Numbered from the stretch's first letter, positions 37,489 to 55,699 are shown. The stretch: DNA of 64,000 bases from an uncultured Clostridia bacterium (GCA_934169745.1 CAKPOE010000003.1:16087-80086); one strand, 5' to 3'. The notes: generated by a model not told the origin, from the letters alone. Numbers and translations are program-made.

Positions 37489-38458
37489 ATGGAAACTTAC
37501 AATTTATATAAGATTGGGGGTATAATATAGCCAAACAAAGGGCGGTTCACGGCTATTGTGGGCTGCCGAACGAAAACAATGAAAAATGTCAATATTAAAT
37601 CTAAGTAGGGAATAGGGAAATAGGCTATTTTTAGAAAAGTGTAAAAACAAAATTTTAAATTATAAAATAAAAAATTCTTAAAAACAAGAAAGGAAATTTA
37701 AATATTTAAAAATTTTGTTTAGAGTTAAAATTTTACATACGAACATTTGTTAGAATGCTCAAAAATGATTTTATATTATAATTTAATAATTTTTTATAAA
37801 TACTATATAATTTTAGATTACAAATCCATAATATAATTTTATAGTTGTGACACACTAAAATCGATTTTAAGGCATTTTTATATTCAATCAAGCAAATTAT
37901 ATAACTATGATTATATATGTTAATTTATAAATCTAGTGTTTATTATATAATTTTAGCAGAAATACTGATTCTTAATCATTTACAATAAATGCTTAATAAT
38001 TGTTCAAAAAACGACGCACGAGGATGCCCTAGAATCGATTTATAGAAATTGGGTAATGAAGTTATATTGACGAAATAAAAACTAATTGTCGTGAACCGAG
38101 GATTTTTAAAGAAATGGAGAGATATTTAAATAAAACTTCTAAATATGATTAAAATTAATTAAATATTACTAAATATAATAAAATTAGTGTAAATGAATTT
38201 CTAATATAGAGAAATATTAAAATTATATGTAACGTGTGACAAAAAAATAATAACAATAATTTAAAAATTGATAAAAAAAGAAAAGAAATAGCAACACTTT
38301 AAGGTCAATAATGCAAAATCTTGCAAATGTACCATTTTACGCGTTTTATTGCATACATTATTGTACAAAACTATTATTTTGTGCAATAAATATTTGCCTA
38401 ATATTTTGAAAAATGTTACGTTATTTATAATATTCTCCTCTATAATGATATATAAAAA

Positions 38459-38496
38459 AATCTATTGTATATTTATTTTTTACAATAGATTTTCTA
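38459..38496 (-). terminator. Terminator for the minus-strand gene 38505-38876
   Basis: aaatctattgta...tacaatagattt is a 12-bp perfect stem. On the minus strand it is followed by tttttttat. Confidence 0.65.
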
Positions 38497-38504
38497 TAGA
38501 ATCT

Positions 38505-38876
38505 TTATTTCTTTTTATCCGACTTTCCTGAACCGCCTTGCATTATTAAGTCTAAAACTAATAATGCAATAAATGCCACAACAATTGCGACAACCCATTT
38601 CGTCACTGGCGAACCAGCTTCTTTGATTTCCACTCCAGTGTTATTTTCTTGGTTATTTGCTACGTCTTCAAATTTTCCTGTAACATTTTCTGTAGTTCCT
38701 TTTATTCCATCAATTACATCTGATTTTATATTTATATCACTTTCTATGTAACTATTAACTATATTAGGTTGCCAGCTTATTTTGTTATATAGAACTAAAG
38801 CGATAATCGCAACACCAATCGCAATAAATATATTTTTCCATTTTTTCACAAGTAAATTTTTCATGTTATCCTCCAC
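38505..38876 (-). CDS. Small membrane protein with two TM helices
   Basis: 123 aa. RBS present. N-terminal and C-terminal hydrophobic helices. Monocistronic. Confidence 0.45.
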   Translation of the reverse strand: MEDNMKNLLVKKWKNIFIAIGVAIIALVLYNKISWQPNIVNSYIESDINIKSDVIDGIKGTTENVTGKFEDVANNQENNTGVEIKEAGSPVTKWVVAIVVAFIALLVLDLIMQGGSGKSDKKK

Positions 38877-39006
38877 TCTCTTGTTTTCACATAATATATT
38901 ATAATTCAGATTACATAATTTAACAAGTCTTTTTTTTATTTTTTTGATAATAATAATTATAGAACTTTATTATTTTTAAGAATTTTTATGTATTGGAGTG
39001 ATACGC

Positions 39007-48765: not shown

Positions 48766-50010
48766 TTAATTAGCTTTTTCGCTCGTTTTTTGTGTGTTGT
48801 TCATCAAAGCTTTTAAATATGCTACACGTTCATCTTTTTGTGTTTGAATTTCTTCTGTCAAAGCCGCTTTTACTTTTTCTGCATTTCCGTTTTCTTCAGT
48901 AATTGTTGTATCTGCCATATTTATTCTTTGAGCTAGAATTGCTTCTGTATCAAAGTTTGCTTTTACTTCTTCTAAGATGTTTGGATTAGCTTTGATAATA
49001 TTTAGAACATTTTCTTTTACAGGATAAGTTCTCGCAATCTGCTTATCGTTCACAACAATTTTATGTTTATACATATTTAATACAGTTTCATTCTTTTCGT
49101 TTACTGCTTTTTCAATGTCTTCAACTTCATCTTTTGATAAATCAACTAATCTAACTATATCATCAAAAGATAAATCAGCTCTTGTAACTTTTATTCCATC
49201 TTTTAATGTTGTAAGTTCATCTTCAGTTGCTTCTGGGTTTGTTTGTAAATATGCGTCCCTTGCTTCGTTAAATCTTGTCTCGGTTAAATTTGCAATCAAA
49301 CTTGAAACGGCATTATTATATTTTGCAACGTAATCAACTTCTCTATACTCAAATAATTGATTTGCAGGATCAACATATTTGTTAGCATATAATTTTGTTC
49401 CATCTAATATGTATGCTTCAATAATTGCACTACCAACTGTCAAGATTTCATCTTCTGTTAATCTTATAAATATTGTATTATTTGAATATGCTTCTACCTT
49501 CTTACCAATCAACACACTGTAATCCTCTCCTGATGGAAATCTTACACGTACGTCTATGTAATCGTTCTCAACCAAATCACTTGGCAAAGTAATCATATTA
49601 AATTCTTGAAGTCTTAAATCGATTGTTGGTTCTTTGTCTTCTTCATAGAACATAGCTTCCGAAAGAATCGTATTCTTTCTAGCATTTATCTTTAATCTTC
49701 TACCAACCAAATCCTTCAAGCCTTTTACTTTTTTGGCTGGATCAGCTTTTTCTTCATATGAATCAAGCGGAGCACTAACACTCTTTACTCCGGCTAACTC
49801 TACATCATCAGCTGTTATTACAGAATTTGCAACTCTATCTTCTTTTAGAACATATCTGTTTACTACTTCGCTTTGCTTTTTTAAGTCTTCAATCTCGCCT
49901 CTGTAATTCTTTACAAGAATAAAACCTAGTACACCTAAAACAACAATTGGAATTAAACAAGAAATTACAGCTGTAAGCACAACCTTTCTCTTCATTGGTC
50001 CTACTAACAT
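48766..50010 (-). CDS. CpaB/RcpC-like Flp-pilus assembly protein (N-terminal TM + SAF-like domain)
   Basis: Start placed at M12 (MLVGPMKRK), which has an AGGAGAGG RBS. TM followed by the SAF-like stretch VANSVITADDVELAGV. Confidence 0.5.
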   Translation of the reverse strand: MLVGPMKRKVVLTAVISCLIPIVVLGVLGFILVKNYRGEIEDLKKQSEVVNRYVLKEDRVANSVITADDVELAGVKSVSAPLDSYEEKADPAKKVKGLKDLVGRRLKINARKNTILSEAMFYEEDKEPTIDLRLQEFNMITLPSDLVENDYIDVRVRFPSGEDYSVLIGKKVEAYSNNTIFIRLTEDEILTVGSAIIEAYILDGTKLYANKYVDPANQLFEYREVDYVAKYNNAVSSLIANLTETRFNEARDAYLQTNPEATEDELTTLKDGIKVTRADLSFDDIVRLVDLSKDEVEDIEKAVNEKNETVLNMYKHKIVVNDKQIARTYPVKENVLNIIKANPNILEEVKANFDTEAILAQRINMADTTITEENGNAEKVKAALTEEIQTQKDERVAYLKALMNNTQKTSEKAN

Positions 50011-50054
50011 AATATCATCCTCTCCTCTTCTTTGCATACTCATTCCTATAAATT

Positions 50055-50083
50055 ATAATAACATATGCCACCCCTCTCTTCAA
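50055..50083 (-). promoter_or_regulatory. Candidate sigma-A promoter of the Tad-like operon (TTGAAG-17-TATTAT on the minus strand)
   Basis: Reverse complement of 50078-50083 is TTGAAG; of 50055-50060 is TATTAT; spacer 17. Confidence 0.4.
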
Positions 50084-50108
50084 CAAAAGAAGACACATTT
50101 AATCAAAA

Positions 50109-50137
50109 TGTAACATCTTTGTAACAAAAATGTAACA
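50109..50137. promoter_or_regulatory. Three direct TGTAACA repeats at 11-bp spacing upstream of the Tad-like operon promoter
   Basis: TGTAACA at 50109, 50120 and 50131, phased at one helical turn. Confidence 0.4.
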
Positions 50138-50142
50138 AAAAG

Positions 50143-50175
50143 AAAACGCTGTAAGCTCAATACTTACAACGTTTT
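50143..50175 (-). terminator. Hairpin/terminator after the A2M-like gene
   Basis: aaaacgctgtaag / ctcaata / cttacaacgtttt is a 12/13-bp stem followed by a T-rich run on the minus strand. Confidence 0.5.
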
Positions 50176-50199
50176 CTTCTATAGGAAAAAATATGATAA

Positions 50200-53100
50200 T
50201 TACATAATATTTGGCATTAAATAATCAATTATTTTGTCATCCATATCTTTTAATATTACTCCATCAGAAATATACTCTCCTTCACTTGTTACAATTGCTT
50301 CATACTCTACATATTGATTTGTAGTTCCTGAGGTATATACATAAAAGTACAATTTCTGTCCATCCTTTCTATATGGAGTTTTTACGACATTTTCATCATA
50401 CGCATATTTATCTCCTTCAGTAAGTTTCATAGAGTTTGGCAATACATCTTCAATAACATAAGCCACATCATCAGTCGATAGTTTACTATAGTCTATATTT
50501 ATTTTTACTGTTACTATATCACCAATATTAGCAGTACTAATATCTTTTCCATTGATTGTATAAGTTTTTCTTAATATTCCTTTTGAATTTTTTTCGTCCG
50601 GTTTAATTATTTCTGTTCTTCTATACTTAGTACCAATATTGTCAGTTGCTGATTTCACGTAAACCTCGTCTTTGTACGTTACACTATAAGGAATAACTTC
50701 AATACCATTTACGCTTATTTCTTTTTCTTCGCCATTTACATTCAAAATCACTTTTCCATTCTCAACAGAATTTTGTATCTCGTTTTGAATTCTAAATAGT
50801 TTTACAAAATTAGAATATTCCGTCCCTCTATTAAGAGATTTGTATTTTTCATATATACTCGTTCTATTTGTGTTATTAAGCTTAAAGCTTAGCATTGATG
50901 TGTATTCAATCATTTCACTTGTGTAACTCAATGATGTTGTATCATACATGTCACAAATTCTAGTTGCGCTTTCATACTCTCCTATATCAGCATAAGAAAG
51001 AGCAAGTATTAAGAATTCATACTTATCCTCTTCAAATTTAAGATTTTTTTCTATTTCTCTTAAATCCTTTAATACCGGTTCTTTAAGTGCTGCTAATCCC
51101 CAATATGCATATAACTTCTCTCTCATATCTAAATTTTCATTTGATATAACATCTTCAAAATATTTTGCTAAATTTGCGTCTCCTTTAAAATATCCTGTTG
51201 AAGCAAGTTTTGCAGATAATAGTACATCTGAACTTGAAACGCCCAACAACGATAGTCCATGAATTGTATCAAACTCTTCACTTTTAGCAGTAGTTTTTTC
51301 ATTAGACAATTTTCTTAATATATTATCTGCCAAATAAGAAATAACCTTTTGGTCGTTTCTCACTTTTGGCATATATGTTAAATAAAACAAATCATCTAAT
51401 ATGTTGCTAATATCTTTATTTGAAAAATACAATGTTGCAACACCTTTATCAACACTTATTTTTTCGTTTGCTTTCAATTCAAAATTAGTTGATATAACCG
51501 CTTCTTGAAAAGTATCAACAACTTGAATGTTCTTCTTTATTGCATCAGTTCTTCCATTACTTTCTGCTTTTATAACTATTTCATACGTTCCACTATTTAA
51601 TTTTCCTAATGATACGTTAGCATATTTTCCAACATTAGATTCTACATTTAATACATTTTTTTGTCCGTTAGGAGATGTTATCTCTATTGTATACTTGATC
51701 TCATCATTTACTTTTGTTGCATTACCGTTACATCTAATATTTATTGATGGCGTTTCTCCTGTTAGATATTTGTCATTTGAAATAGCTGTTACAAAGAATG
51801 GCAAAGTTACTTTTAAATCTTTATCTAATTGCACTGCTTTATAATCCTTTATAGTAGCTTGTGCACTGACGTTCCAAGTTGTAACATTGTCAGGTAGTTT
51901 TAATTCTATTTCTGCTTCTCCATTATCATTTGTATATACAGTTTCGAAGAAAGCAGTAGTAGCAAATTTTGAACGGATTTCGCCATCTCCTCCTCCGCCA
52001 CCACCAGCGAACGTTTCAGCAATTACTGTGTGCGTTAGATTTTTTATATTGTCGTTAAAGTAATAACTATTGTAAAGAGCATTTAATATGTTTGTATCAT
52101 TTGCATTGGCTGCCAAATATTCTTTATTTACAGCGCTTAAGTTCACAACTGCTTTTATTGGTTTGCCATCACTCTTTGTAGTTACTTTTATTTTTATTAT
52201 ATCCCCCGGCTTATATTCTGCTTTATCAAATTTTATATCAACATCCATTTTTAATTCTTCTTTAGAAAGAGAATATTCATTTTCAAAAGAATAATAATAG
52301 TCTCCGATTTCTCTTATTGCAACTCCGTCAAACACATATCCTTTTATAACAAGATTTGCTCCATATTTCTTGTCGAACCTCAATCTATAATTAGTATCTT
52401 TTGTTGTAATAACATCTATACCATTTGATGATTTCACTAAATATAGAATATATGGTGTACCAGTTAGTTCACCATTAATTTTTTGAAGTTCCAATGTAAT
52501 GTCATCATTTACTTTATACTTGTCTCTAAATGTATAATCATTATCATTAATAATATAATTTCCCATAAATACTTCTGATGTGCTCTTCGCTTCTTCATCC
52601 AAGTAAGCACCATACGAGTATTGCATACTTATAAATTTGTTGTCTTTTTCAGAACTCATGAATGCTCTATATTCCAAATATCCCTCAGAGTTATCCTTGT
52701 ATGGACTTATGTATGCACACATAGCTTTTCCGTTTGTCGTTGTATATTCAATTTTATCATTTCCATCAAAAACACGGTTTACTTTATAATTATATTTCGT
52801 TGTTTTTGTATTCTCATCATAATAAGAAGAAACAACTTCTTTTTCATATTTATATTTTTCTATTTCTATATAACCGCTTCTATTGGTTGGTACTCCTTGC
52901 TTTACATCATTCATATCAGAAAAGTCATAAAGGAACGTGTCTATATCAAATAGTACAGTGTTATCTTGTTTGCTATATTTATACACAACATTAAAACTTT
53001 CTTCATTAGGATAAACCGTGAAATACTTTATAATACTGTCTTGATCTTCTATTCCTTTAGCCTTTATTGCAATTTGCCCATAGAATGGTCTGTTATATGG

Positions 53101-54930
53101 ATGTAAATAATTTGTATTAATCTCAAATGTACACTTGCCATTCTCATCAAGTGTTATATTTCTCTCAACATTTTCATTATTTAGTATGTAAACAAATTTA
53201 GTACTTGTTAAAGGGCTTCCATCAAACAGTTTTGCTGTGACGGTACAAGTTATATTTTCGCTACTCTTCACCGATGTCTTATCCAACTCTACATTTACAT
53301 CATATGAATTCGTATCATAATCTTTTATTTCAAAAGAATCTCTAGCCTGACATTTTCCATTTACATACACGCATACATCATAATAGCCACTAGTATAATT
53401 TTCTACATTAAATGTAGTTTCAAAAGTTTTAAATTCATCTAAAGAAACATTTTTTTCTTCAATCACCGTATCAGACCATAAAGGTGTTACTTTTAATATT
53501 ACTTCTTTAAATTCTCTTCCTTTTCTGTCTTTTACAAATCCCCACAAGTGAATTTCTTCATCTGGTTTAAATGTCTTTCTATCTAATCTTGTATAAACAT
53601 TTATATACTCATCCGTATTTGATTTATTATCTTCGTTATGTATAACACTATATAACGTTTCTCTACCGTCTATATAAATCTCTTCTGTCAAATATCGGGT
53701 AGACTTTATATCTATATCATTTATATACAAATACCCTTCAGCATTTGTAACACCAACTTCTTTTCCATCGATTTTAATTTTAGCATTTCCTAGTGGCGCG
53801 CTATTTGCTAAGTCATTGACCCATACTAGCAAATCATTATCCACATACTCGGTTAATGCTGTGATGTTATTTATTTGAAGCGGTATATAATATTCAGTGC
53901 CATTTATTCTTACTACCAGCATATAATAACCAAGAGCTAATTTTGTTTTTATTGGTAATATGTAATTCCAAGATGAATCTATAATTTCTTCTTTAGATAT
54001 AGTTTCTTCAGAAATCTTTGCTAGTGATGTTAAATCTACTTTTTTCAAGATAGACTTATTTCCAAATTCCTTCTTTGCTTTTAAATCTTCTAAGAATTGT
54101 TTGCCACTTTCGTATTGATAAATTGACACATTATACTTATCAACTTCATTTGTATATAGTTTCAAATATATAGGCTTATTTTCAGAATACCCATATTCTG
54201 TATCAACAAAGTCAATATATTCATTTTTTTCTATATCGTCAGCAGAAACGTACGTTCTCAAAGCGTATTCTTTCTCAGATAATTTCTCTGTATTTTCTTT
54301 GTTTCCAAATCCAGCCCTAATATTTACAACATATGTTGTTGCATATTCTAGCCCATCATTGGGAGTAAATCTTATTTTTCTATTATCATATTCAAATTTT
54401 CCTTCAACTTTAGGTGTAATTTCAAAATAGTTTTCTATATCATCATTAGGCGTATAAGTAAATTGAATTTCTATAACTGTATGTGGAGAAACGTAGTTGG
54501 TGTTCATTTCATTTTTTTCGGCTGGATAAAAGTTTGAAACATCAAATACTTTCTGTGTTTGGAAAGACCATTTATATGGTGCCTTATCTGTTTTGTATTC
54601 AATATTATAAATTGTATTAGGTGCCAATTCTTCTTTTAGTGTTAAAGTATAATAATTATTTCTCACTTCTTTAATTTCATATTCTACACTGGGAGTTATA
54701 GAAAACGATGTCTCAACAAGTTCTTTACTTGTACTTTCGTTTGCTTCTAAATTAAATGATGTGTTAAGTGCAACCAAGTCGTTTTTCTCATTGGAAGCGG
54801 TAACTTTAAATTCCGGGTAATTCATCACTTTTTTAACATCGCCTTGATCATCTCGTATATTCATAGATATTACGAAAAATGATATAACAGCAATGATAAA
54901 AATGCTAATAATAAGTACTTTTTTGTTCAT
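50200..54930 (-). CDS. Giant N-terminally membrane-anchored alpha-2-macroglobulin-family protein (MG-domain array; no CxEQ thioester seen)
   Basis: 1576 aa. RSKFATTAFFETVYTNDNGEAEIELKLPDNVTTWNV matches the A2M RxxFxETxxW...PDxxTTW signature. Long array of beta-sandwich-like repeats and a C-terminal helical TED-like region. Confidence 0.6.
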   Translation of the reverse strand: MNKKVLIISIFIIAVISFFVISMNIRDDQGDVKKVMNYPEFKVTASNEKNDLVALNTSFNLEANESTSKELVETSFSITPSVEYEIKEVRNNYYTLTLKEELAPNTIYNIEYKTDKAPYKWSFQTQKVFDVSNFYPAEKNEMNTNYVSPHTVIEIQFTYTPNDDIENYFEITPKVEGKFEYDNRKIRFTPNDGLEYATTYVVNIRAGFGNKENTEKLSEKEYALRTYVSADDIEKNEYIDFVDTEYGYSENKPIYLKLYTNEVDKYNVSIYQYESGKQFLEDLKAKKEFGNKSILKKVDLTSLAKISEETISKEEIIDSSWNYILPIKTKLALGYYMLVVRINGTEYYIPLQINNITALTEYVDNDLLVWVNDLANSAPLGNAKIKIDGKEVGVTNAEGYLYINDIDIKSTRYLTEEIYIDGRETLYSVIHNEDNKSNTDEYINVYTRLDRKTFKPDEEIHLWGFVKDRKGREFKEVILKVTPLWSDTVIEEKNVSLDEFKTFETTFNVENYTSGYYDVCVYVNGKCQARDSFEIKDYDTNSYDVNVELDKTSVKSSENITCTVTAKLFDGSPLTSTKFVYILNNENVERNITLDENGKCTFEINTNYLHPYNRPFYGQIAIKAKGIEDQDSIIKYFTVYPNEESFNVVYKYSKQDNTVLFDIDTFLYDFSDMNDVKQGVPTNRSGYIEIEKYKYEKEVVSSYYDENTKTTKYNYKVNRVFDGNDKIEYTTTNGKAMCAYISPYKDNSEGYLEYRAFMSSEKDNKFISMQYSYGAYLDEEAKSTSEVFMGNYIINDNDYTFRDKYKVNDDITLELQKINGELTGTPYILYLVKSSNGIDVITTKDTNYRLRFDKKYGANLVIKGYVFDGVAIREIGDYYYSFENEYSLSKEELKMDVDIKFDKAEYKPGDIIKIKVTTKSDGKPIKAVVNLSAVNKEYLAANANDTNILNALYNSYYFNDNIKNLTHTVIAETFAGGGGGGDGEIRSKFATTAFFETVYTNDNGEAEIELKLPDNVTTWNVSAQATIKDYKAVQLDKDLKVTLPFFVTAISNDKYLTGETPSINIRCNGNATKVNDEIKYTIEITSPNGQKNVLNVESNVGKYANVSLGKLNSGTYEIVIKAESNGRTDAIKKNIQVVDTFQEAVISTNFELKANEKISVDKGVATLYFSNKDISNILDDLFYLTYMPKVRNDQKVISYLADNILRKLSNEKTTAKSEEFDTIHGLSLLGVSSSDVLLSAKLASTGYFKGDANLAKYFEDVISNENLDMREKLYAYWGLAALKEPVLKDLREIEKNLKFEEDKYEFLILALSYADIGEYESATRICDMYDTTSLSYTSEMIEYTSMLSFKLNNTNRTSIYEKYKSLNRGTEYSNFVKLFRIQNEIQNSVENGKVILNVNGEEKEISVNGIEVIPYSVTYKDEVYVKSATDNIGTKYRRTEIIKPDEKNSKGILRKTYTINGKDISTANIGDIVTVKINIDYSKLSTDDVAYVIEDVLPNSMKLTEGDKYAYDENVVKTPYRKDGQKLYFYVYTSGTTNQYVEYEAIVTSEGEYISDGVILKDMDDKIIDYLMPNIM

Positions 54931-55004
54931 TTTAAAAACCTCCTTCGAGAATTAAGTATATCATAAAAAAGCATTTATATAAATAATTAAATTAAAAACA
55001 GAAA

Positions 55005-55043
55005 AACGTGAATCAGAAAAAATATTTTCCGGTTCACGTTTTT
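55005..55043 (-). terminator. Terminator of the OB-fold gene
   Basis: aaaacgtgaa...ttcacgtttt is a 10-bp stem followed by a T-run on the minus strand. Confidence 0.55.
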
Positions 55044-55090
55044 TAGAGCTAATTTTGAATTACTTTTTCGGCAATCTCCTATTGTTTAGC

Positions 55091-55699
55091 TTAACTGGTA
55101 AAGCATACACTCCTTGCAGACACTTCGTAGACAGTTTCTTGTGTTGCTCTTCCGTCATAGTGCTTCTTCATAAACTGCCGTTCTTGAAGCCTTCCAATAA
55201 TCACCACATTCCCATAGGGAATCTTATCGTGAATATTTTTCACGAAGTAAGCATTGGGTCCCCATGCAATTGTAGGAATGAATTCATCCTTCCAGCTACA
55301 TGTCATAACCTGGAAGTCGAGCAGTTCTCTCAAAGAAAGTGGTGTAACACGAATTTGACCTACCTTGCGAATCTTGCCGATTAAAGAAACGATGTTTATG
55401 TCATCGCAATCTTCATCCACAATTTCTACTTGGCGTGCAAAAACACGCACAGTCCACCGGGCTACTGCCTTTCTTATGTTTTCATGCATATACAAGTTAC
55501 CAGTTACCTTAATCTTTATGCCAGCTCGTACATACGGAATATCCAAGTTCTGTACGGATACCTTCAGCAAATCGCTCTTGCCAAATGTTGCCCGCTTCAC
55601 GCGAAGTTCAATAAGCGAGTCTCCTTCTTGCCCAGGATGCAGTACAATCAACTTCTCAACGGTTCCAACGAGTTGTACATAGTTTGGCCCTTCGTACAT
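55091..55699 (-). CDS. Tandem double OB-fold (SSB-like) protein; elevated GC
   Basis: 202 aa. Two consecutive about 95-aa segments each follow the SSB-like pattern (VxLVGxV...G-rich loops...VxV). Its own TTGACA-17-TATTAT promoter lies at about 55735-55765 on the minus strand. GC about 43%. Confidence 0.4.
   Translation of the reverse strand: MYEGPNYVQLVGTVEKLIVLHPGQEGDSLIELRVKRATFGKSDLLKVSVQNLDIPYVRAGIKIKVTGNLYMHENIRKAVARWTVRVFARQVEIVDEDCDDINIVSLIGKIRKVGQIRVTPLSLRELLDFQVMTCSWKDEFIPTIAWGPNAYFVKNIHDKIPYGNVVIIGRLQERQFMKKHYDGRATQETVYEVSARSVCFTS

Follow-up and report, generated by a model that had tools for sequence, protein, structure and literature searches.

What does an alpha-2-macroglobulin (A2M) do at the surface of a bacterium with a single membrane, and is it tied to the Tad-like operon that begins directly behind its gene? 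These questions are raised by a minus-strand open reading frame (ORF) of 1576 codons with an ATG start (50200..54930; ORF list and translation), which is located in a 64-kb stretch of DNA from an uncultured Clostridia bacterium; this whole stretch of 64,000 nucleotides is referred to below as the window. A preliminary description of the locus had recognised the product as a membrane-anchored bacterial A2M and had suggested that it forms a functional module with the adjacent operon. Our analysis upheld the first of these views and spoke against the second. By analogy with the thioester-less MagD protein of Pseudomonas, we lean, with some reserve, towards the interpretation that this monoderm A2M is a cleavage-triggered, non-covalent protease trap or shield at the membrane surface, and that its Tad-like neighbour is incidental.

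Family assignment and domain architecture

Three Pfam domains were recognised above their cut-offs in the predicted protein: (i) MG2 (residues 445-525; 33.5 bits, cut-off 32.8), (ii) A2M_BRD (residues 802-939; 31.4 bits, cut-off 22.7) and (iii) A2M (residues 992-1048; 29.5 bits, cut-off 21; E 6.5e-7). Weaker signals were obtained for Big_5, MG3/MG4 and bMG3. The Pfam scan gave no match to a TED, thiol-ester or receptor domain, and the NCBIfam scan of the protein gave no match. A single-sequence phmmer search against the PDB was marginal (E 0.2), and a profile of homologues was needed to obtain significant matches, namely to CD109 (1e-23), YfhM/ECAM (4.5e-22), TEP1 (2e-21), Salmonella A2M (2e-17) and human A2M (5e-14). 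Because of these matches, the assignment of the protein to the A2M superfamily is far beyond chance. Both motifs on which the earlier assignment had been based, R986-SKFATTAFF and P1013-DNVTTW, are present.

Two AlphaFold models were generated from alignments of homologues, one covering residues 1-460 (pLDDT 84.1) and the other residues 430-1576 (pLDDT 82.7, pTM 0.69). When the latter was compared with the PDB using Foldseek, native ECAM (5a42; 3e-47) and Salmonella A2M (4u48; 4e-46) occupied the top ranks, followed by TEP1, CD109 and C3/C4/C5 (E 1e-42 to 1e-35). The ORF and the parts of its product, in the order of the protein chain, are as follows (TM, transmembrane; MG, macroglobulin).

50200..54930, minus strand: complete A2M ORF, 1576 aa, membrane-anchored and thioester-less (ORF list, Pfam, Foldseek, dN/dS)
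54850..54927, minus strand: signal-anchor TM helix, residues 2-27 (AlphaFold helix; Kyte-Doolittle mean 3.16 over 19 residues)
53638..54813, minus strand: four beta domains equivalent to MG0-NIE-MG1, residues 40-431 (AlphaFold; ECAM 4zjg, E 5e-11; weak Big_5 and bMG3)
52126..53604, minus strand: array of MG domains including MG2 and A2M_BRD, residues 443-935 (Pfam, AlphaFold, Foldseek)
51976..52050, minus strand: disordered Gly-rich bait-equivalent loop THTVIAETFAGGGGGGDGEI, residues 961-985, directly before RxxF (pLDDT <50)
51763..51975, minus strand: A2M (MG7) domain with both motifs named above, residues 986-1056 (Pfam; human A2M alignment)
51418..51753, minus strand: beta domains between MG7 and the helical domain, MG/CUB-like and named by position only, residues 1060-1171 (AlphaFold)
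50779..51417, minus strand: all-helical TED-like domain, residues 1172-1384, containing R1191-N-D-Q (AlphaFold, 11 helices)
50218..50757, minus strand: C-terminal beta domains (second CUB half and MG8/MG10-like) with a conserved IEDVLPN motif, residues 1392-1571 (AlphaFold)

Neither a lipobox nor a clear signal-peptidase site can be recognised in the N-terminus, MNKKVLIISIFIIAVISFFVISMNIRDD, which the model shows as a TM helix followed by a disordered linker. This hydrophobic helix is conserved in homologues, and the membrane anchor proposed previously is thus confirmed. In the C-terminal region, Pfam bMG10 matches were obtained for more distant homologues. Comparison with the 98%-identical orthologue in L001 yielded a dN/dS of 0.16, the 36 amino-acid changes being spread along the protein; the A2M gene is therefore functional.

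Thioester site and bait-equivalent loop

The CxEQ motif, which had been noted as not visible, occurs nowhere in the protein, nor was it found in the 33 closest database clusters. In an alignment with CxEQ-bearing bacterial A2Ms, C-x-E-Q falls on R1191-N-D-Q, and R-x-D/E-Q is conserved among the thioester-less relatives. Because CxEQ is replaced by this conserved motif, covalent capture of a protease via the thioester site is predicted to be impossible. A non-covalent protease trap, suggested in the preliminary description, is a reasonable reading.

The loop that precedes MG7 occupies the place of the bait region. Within the clade its first half is variable and its G run is conserved. Bait-like hypervariability was considered and rejected: other parts of the protein vary more than the loop, most of all residues 751-800, the N-terminus and residues 1401-1450.

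The wider family and its Hint-bearing members

When residues 430-1576 were used in an exhaustive HMMER search of cluster representatives (50% identity), 2846 of these matched at E<=1e-3 and 660 at E<=1e-30. Family statistics were derived from the 148 best of these representatives (24-54% identity, mostly 1550-1870 aa). CxEQ is absent from all 148; R-x-[DE]-Q occupies the corresponding position in at least 91 of them, and the N-terminus of 126 is hydrophobic. Nearly all share a Gly/Glu-rich loop (GGAExGGEGG-like) ahead of RxxFxD, a hallmark of the family.

In 27 of the 131 full-length representatives, a domain of ~129 aa is inserted exactly in the Gly-rich loop (GG/CFxxGTxILM ... YVHN/X-KGGDGxRxDF, with slashes at the borders of the insert). 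The four inserts that were checked match Pfam PT-HINT above the cut-off, with further matches to Hint, Vint and Hom_end_hint. Examples are P0234, P0239, P0242, P0252 and P0266, as well as P0017 (L096:6001-11220). The +1 residue is Ser in 3 of the 27 inserts and D, Q, A, E, N or K in the others. Since most of them lack a +1 nucleophile, the inserts look like bacterial intein-like (BIL) self-cleaving domains rather than canonical inteins. To judge from their sequences, such an insert would imply self-cleavage at the bait position of these relatives, possibly with a Gly-Cys thioester, and may mark the loop as a site where cleavage of the chain matters. The GGGGGGDG run of the window protein corresponds to both flanks of the insertion site; Pfam detected no Hint domain in this protein.

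Relationship of the A2M gene to the Tad-like operon

The next gene lies on the same strand, 156 bp 3' of the A2M gene, and opens an 11-gene cluster with a CpaF-like ATPase; the position of the A2M gene directly beside a Tad-like operon in a Firmicute had been correctly described. From this position it had been suggested that the two units form one module, in which the A2M would be an accessory of the Tad-like filament machine, providing envelope protection during assembly or acting as a filament-associated adhesin. The features that separate the two units are listed below, together with the start signals of the A2M gene.

54939..54983, minus strand: putative A2M promoter, TTTATA-17-TG-TATACT at 54983..54955, and AGGAGG at 54944..54939 (consensus scan, direct reading)
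50138..50180, minus strand: intrinsic-terminator-like hairpin after the A2M stop codon, with a 19-bp stem and a T run (RNA fold)
50055..50137, minus strand: control region of the Tad-like operon, with three direct GTTACA repeats 11 bp apart (50137..50109), TTTTGATTAAAT and TTGAAG-17-TG-TATTAT (50083..50055)
39765..50043, minus strand: Tad-like cluster, probably an incidental neighbour

The A2M promoter-like site, defined by consensus matches only, is followed by an AGGAGG ribosome-binding site 8 nt 5' of the start codon. Just 5' of the promoter-like site, at about 55000-55045, is a hairpin terminating the preceding gene. The hairpin behind the A2M gene, already interpreted as the gene's own terminator, is highly stable (dG -23.6 kcal/mol; z = -6.8, or -6.77 to two places), and none of 200 shuffled sequences was equally stable. 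A hairpin is found at the same place in all five lineages that carry the A2M gene.

The region between this hairpin and the CpaB-like gene is predicted to belong to the Tad-like operon and not to the A2M unit. It is kept 5' of the CpaB-like gene in the presence and in the absence of the A2M gene, and is recognisable to about 65% ATPase identity; its three-repeat element is present in all five A2M-bearing lineages. In relatives it takes the form of three [AGT]TTACA repeats with 11-bp spacing, TTT(T/A)GATTA(A/C), a TTGAAG or TTGATA -35 box and an extended -10 box. We observed it in L001, L002, L010-L016, L020, L023, L030, L041, L090, L092 and L093. The three-repeat element looks like the putative operator of some regulator. 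When the same repeats were sought 5' of the A2M gene as a sign of co-regulation, four lineages had none, and L093 had a single copy attributable to chance. Because a terminator and the operon's own conserved promoter/operator lie between them, the A2M gene is predicted to form its own transcription unit, separate from the Tad-like operon.

The adjacency is not peculiar to the window: five lineages have an A2M gene immediately 5' of this Tad-like cluster, namely the window together with L001 (98% A2M identity), L092 (64%), L090 (53%), L093 and L002-4 (both 47%). The window, L092 and L002 have the PBP5 gene and a small gene 5' of the A2M gene, L090 has NrdD-NrdG there, and L093 has HD_4-mTERF and three further genes. 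That the junction has been kept in five lineages despite an A2M identity of 47-64%, and in at least three upstream contexts, favours the module, as do the common strand and the short gap. However, the ATPase of these loci is 86.5-97% identical to that of the window, compared with 83-85% in the nearest loci lacking the A2M gene, and the presence of the latter therefore maps to one shallow clade. It therefore cannot strictly be said that the two units never occur together elsewhere, which had been named as a ground for dismissing the module; their co-occurrence is limited to this clade.

For the reverse comparison, contigs of one genome per species were searched with an alignment of the ATPase, which yielded 483 relatives; the best 80 of them (64-86% identity, from metagenome-assembled genomes (MAGs) of gut Clostridia) were analysed with 10-kb flanks. 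The order CpaB-like, TadZ1, TadZ2, ATPase, membrane protein, pilin-like genes and 391-aa gene is kept in all 80 loci, as far as the contigs reach. None of the 80 contains an A2M relative (phmmer, hidden Markov model of 28 homologues, and tblastn; at least 5 kb of 5' sequence in 57 loci) or an ORF of >1000 aa 5' of the CpaB-like gene, and tblastn revealed no A2M remnants in the A2M-less loci. The numbers of relatives in the same word-indexed database are also very unequal, with >7425 clusters for the ATPase and 42 for the A2M.

The closest A2M-less species are L010 and L011 (ATPase identity 84-85%), and in both the PBP5 gene is the immediate neighbour of the CpaB-like gene. Because of this arrangement, the A2M gene looks like a lineage-specific insertion between PBP5 and the operon control region. 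In the simplest history, a single self-contained A2M gene would have entered between the gene of the PBP5-type carboxypeptidase and the Tad-like operon in one shallow Clostridia clade, and would then have been inherited vertically. Vertical inheritance within this one shallow clade of five lineages accounts for the adjacency, which is most likely inherited rather than functional; the link between the two units would then be incidental. The proposed module thus found no support in this comparison.

Homologues at <=37% identity sit in unrelated contexts and never beside Tad-like genes. Those at 35-37% identity are found in the orders TruA-A2M-DprA-class A penicillin-binding protein (PBP) and TruA-A2M-AAA-ATPase-like. 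One 37% homologue (L091:1285-9757) has a class A PBP with transglycosylase and transpeptidase domains 1.35 kb 3' of it, a single case that recalls the pairing of A2M with PBP1c. Homologues at 24-28% identity are followed by a Memo-family gene (PF01875) in four out of five cases, with a gap of 3-18 bp in three. The Memo genes (L007:16562-17443, L008:14869-15819, L094:12847-13740 and L096:11224-12768) are 39-56% identical to each other, and the hosts of the corresponding A2Ms are Brassicibacter, a Thermoanaerobacterales-like MAG, a Clostridiales MAG and a metagenomic contig with a Hint-bearing homologue (L096). The L096 gene encodes a fusion of Memo with a PGA_cap domain. A Memo gene was sought in the window, and none was found there.

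Proposed function and alternatives

In the reading that we favour, that of a non-covalent trap, the signal-anchor helix would hold an ectodomain of ~1550 residues on the outer side of the cytoplasmic membrane. A protease would cut the exposed Gly-rich loop before MG7, by analogy with thioester-less MagD of Pseudomonas, whose bait is cleaved before the protease is held non-covalently (PMC5764988). The cut would cause a conformational change, by which the protease would be sterically held or blocked. Trapping of this kind may protect the envelope proteins that lie close to the membrane of this gut anaerobe against proteases of host or microbial origin. If these A2Ms do trap proteases, they would provide a surface defence of abundant gut Clostridia and of candidate-phyla bacteria against host digestive or competitor proteases, and their Hint-bearing relatives would offer a new activation chemistry.

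Several observations weigh against a trap of this kind with an incidental neighbour. (i) The trapping role in the monoderm A2M branch is carried over from MagD. (ii) The loop is short (~23 residues) and its Gly run is conserved, so that it is not hypervariable as in classical baits. (iii) The TED-like domain, of ~213 aa, is shorter than canonical TEDs and is not matched by the Pfam TED model. (iv) The model resembles protease-activated ECAM (4ziq, 4rtd; TM-score 0.50-0.51) more than native ECAM or Sa-A2M (0.33); the protein may have no spring-loaded compact native state, or this may be a modelling artefact. (v) The genomic partner at the level of the family is a Memo-like protein, from a family not known to be linked to protease inhibition. 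(vi) The junction with the Tad-like operon has outlived at least two, and perhaps three, upstream rearrangements, which is weakly compatible with selection for linkage, although not statistically compelling.

The alternative that survives best is that the A2M scaffold has been re-used in a surface spacer, an adhesin, or a ligand-binding or envelope-organising protein that does not trap proteases. We consider this possible, if on balance improbable. It is consistent with the loss of the thioester, the truncated TED and the short, conserved loop, and also with the N-terminal Ig-like domains, which resemble those of many surface proteins. Moreover, the divergence of the A2M between lineages (47-64% identity) is similar to that of other extracytoplasmic products of the locus (CpaB-like 44-81%, pilin-like 32-93%), the ATPase being much more conserved (86.5-97%), and the conserved neighbour of distant relatives is a Memo-family gene, a family for which we know of no link to protease inhibition. 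What argues for the trap instead is that the whole 13-domain trap architecture, with its RxxF...PDxxTxW core, is under purifying selection, and that neither a sortase signal nor a known adhesin domain was found in the translation or by Pfam. In addition, MagD still traps protease although it has no thioester (PMC5764988).

A more far-reaching proposal is that these proteins constitute a third, monoderm class of bacterial A2Ms (at least 660 clusters at 50% identity), with R-x-D/E-Q in place of CxEQ and a programmed cleavage of the Gly loop. In the Hint-bearing relatives, about a fifth of the closest ones, an acyl shift at the Gly-Cys junction of the Hint domain would create a new reactive thioester at the point of cleavage, and in the clade of the window the protein might have been recruited to the adjacent Tad-like filament. 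Taken as a whole this is unlikely; if true, covalent chemistry would have been re-invented independently within the A2M fold.

It is also rather doubtful that the Gly-rich loop is a hinge, or a programmed maturation site for a dedicated endogenous or Gly-Gly-specific peptidase, at which a one-time activation similar to C3/C4 processing would produce a two-chain surface complex. A Hint domain is missing from the window protein, its gene is not linked to that of any candidate peptidase, and the argument is drawn from relatives only. In favour are the conservation of the G run within the clade, the general occurrence of a Gly/Glu-rich loop across the family and the resemblance of the model to the activated conformation. 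The Hint domains placed exactly in this loop in 27 of 131 relatives, mostly without a +1 nucleophile, would imply self-cleavage there.

The idea that the A2M and the Tad-like filament machine form one module is very improbable in view of the synteny data presented above.

Neighbouring genes and other features of the window

The Tad-like cluster encodes (i) a 425-aa TM CpaB-like protein, (ii) two ParA/TadZ-like proteins, (iii) a 643-aa ATPase, (iv) a 784-aa membrane protein, (v) four pilin-like proteins and (vi) a 391-aa protein. The ATPase is a distant relative of CpaF/TadA (Caulobacter crescentus CpaF structures, E 7.6e-8; TIGR03819, E 4.9e-6), and its close homologues are named TadA/CpaF by their sources. 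Searches of Pfam and NCBIfam, lax thresholds included, gave no match for the CpaB-like, TadZ-like, membrane, pilin-like and other non-ATPase proteins, and the label 'Tad-like' rests mainly on the ATPase, complemented by gene order and the pilin-like N-termini. An N-terminus of the form M-x-N-A-S-K-A-L-I-x-A-G is common to the four pilin-like proteins, and no prepilin peptidase was seen within the cluster. Such clusters are very widespread in gut Clostridia, as indicated by the 483 ATPase relatives among species-representative genomes.

On the other side of the A2M gene, the following gene separates it from that of the PBP5-type D,D-carboxypeptidase (S11), which lies two genes upstream and is preceded by housekeeping genes.

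55091..55699, minus strand: 202-aa OB/SSB-like protein between PBP5 and the A2M (sub-threshold SSB/OB-fold match, PF00436, E 5.7e-5)

This OB-fold gene was found only in the closest relatives (L001, L092); other A2M-bearing lineages have an HD_4-domain gene or other genes. A partnership with PBP5, comparable to that of A2M with PBP1c, was considered and rejected: the PBP5 gene borders the operon in relatives that lack the A2M gene, and two A2M-bearing lineages have no PBP5 gene 5' of the A2M gene. At the scale of the window, the cumulative GC skew changes sign at about 38000..40000, being positive to about 38 kb and negative beyond, and gene orientation flips from plus to minus at the same point. 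These changes are compatible with a replication origin or terminus, or with a plain strand switch of gene blocks.

Comparison with known A2M systems

The literature consulted, which includes a 2026 review (PMC12939704), describes bacterial A2Ms in Gram-negatives only, where two types are distinguished by the thioester and by their partners, PBP1c or the mag operon: Type I is a lipoprotein with a thioester and PBP1c, and Type II has no thioester and is encoded in the mag operon (PMC5764988, PMC12939704).

The best structural matches for both halves of the window protein are Type I A2Ms, E. coli ECAM/YfhM and Salmonella Sa-A2M (5a42, 4ziq, 4u48, 4zjg). The features in common are MG0-NIE-MG1, BRD, the MG7 motif, a length of ~1600 aa and a tether to the cytoplasmic membrane; a helical domain and C-terminal MG-like domains are predicted at the corresponding places. 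In contrast to Type I, the window protein has (i) RNDQ instead of CxEQ, (ii) a TM signal-anchor instead of a lipobox, (iii) no pbpC/PBP1c neighbour, (iv) a shorter TED-like domain and (v) a short Gly-rich loop instead of a long bait; its host is a monoderm without a periplasm, and the sequence identity is 12-13%.

With Type II A2Ms (Pseudomonas MagD and E. coli YfaS), the protein has in common the missing thioester and attachment at the cytoplasmic membrane, together with a putative bait-equivalent loop at the position of the bait region. Type II proteins are encoded in the six-gene magABCDEF/yfa operon and associate with the membrane via MagB (PMC3735191, PMC5764988), whereas the window protein, compared here with MagD by description, has no mag/yfa operon partners nearby, is anchored by its own TM helix instead of MagB and occurs in Firmicutes rather than Gram-negatives. 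It thus lacks the features that define Type I, and the absence of a thioester is the only defining feature of Type II that it shows.

Eukaryotic thioester-containing proteins (CD109, insect TEP1, A2M and C3/C4/C5) have the same superfamily fold, and CD109 is also membrane-anchored. They differ in having the thioester, a canonical TED and receptor-binding domains, and in lacking the MG0/NIE extension.

The closest parallels are uncharacterised database entries, annotated as 'alpha-2-macroglobulin family protein' or 'hypothetical protein', from Clostridia, Thermoanaerobacterales, Patescibacteria and Chloroflexota (e.g. Brassicibacter mesophilus, P0015), which belong to the same branch. These proteins of ~1550-1870 aa share with the window protein their size, a hydrophobic N-terminus, the absence of CxEQ, R-x-D/E-Q and the Gly-rich loop. 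They differ in that their identity to it is 24-31%, their genes often have a Memo-family gene 3' and no Tad-like operon, and about a fifth of them carry a Hint domain. Membership of such proteins in the A2M family is already recorded in databases ('alpha-2-macroglobulin family protein', 'YfaS'; homologue P0016 is labelled 'YfaS (alpha-2-macroglobulin family)' by IMG) and is not new. Literature searches on Firmicute A2Ms, and on macroglobulins in combination with Hint or intein-like domains, returned nothing relevant, and the monoderm arrangement, the R-x-D/E-Q motif, the Gly-rich loop and the Hint-bearing relatives appear to be undescribed in the searchable literature. Compared with the two known types, these proteins represent a well-conserved third arrangement in single-membrane bacteria, characterised by a TM anchor of their own, R-x-D/E-Q, the Gly-rich loop and different genomic neighbours.

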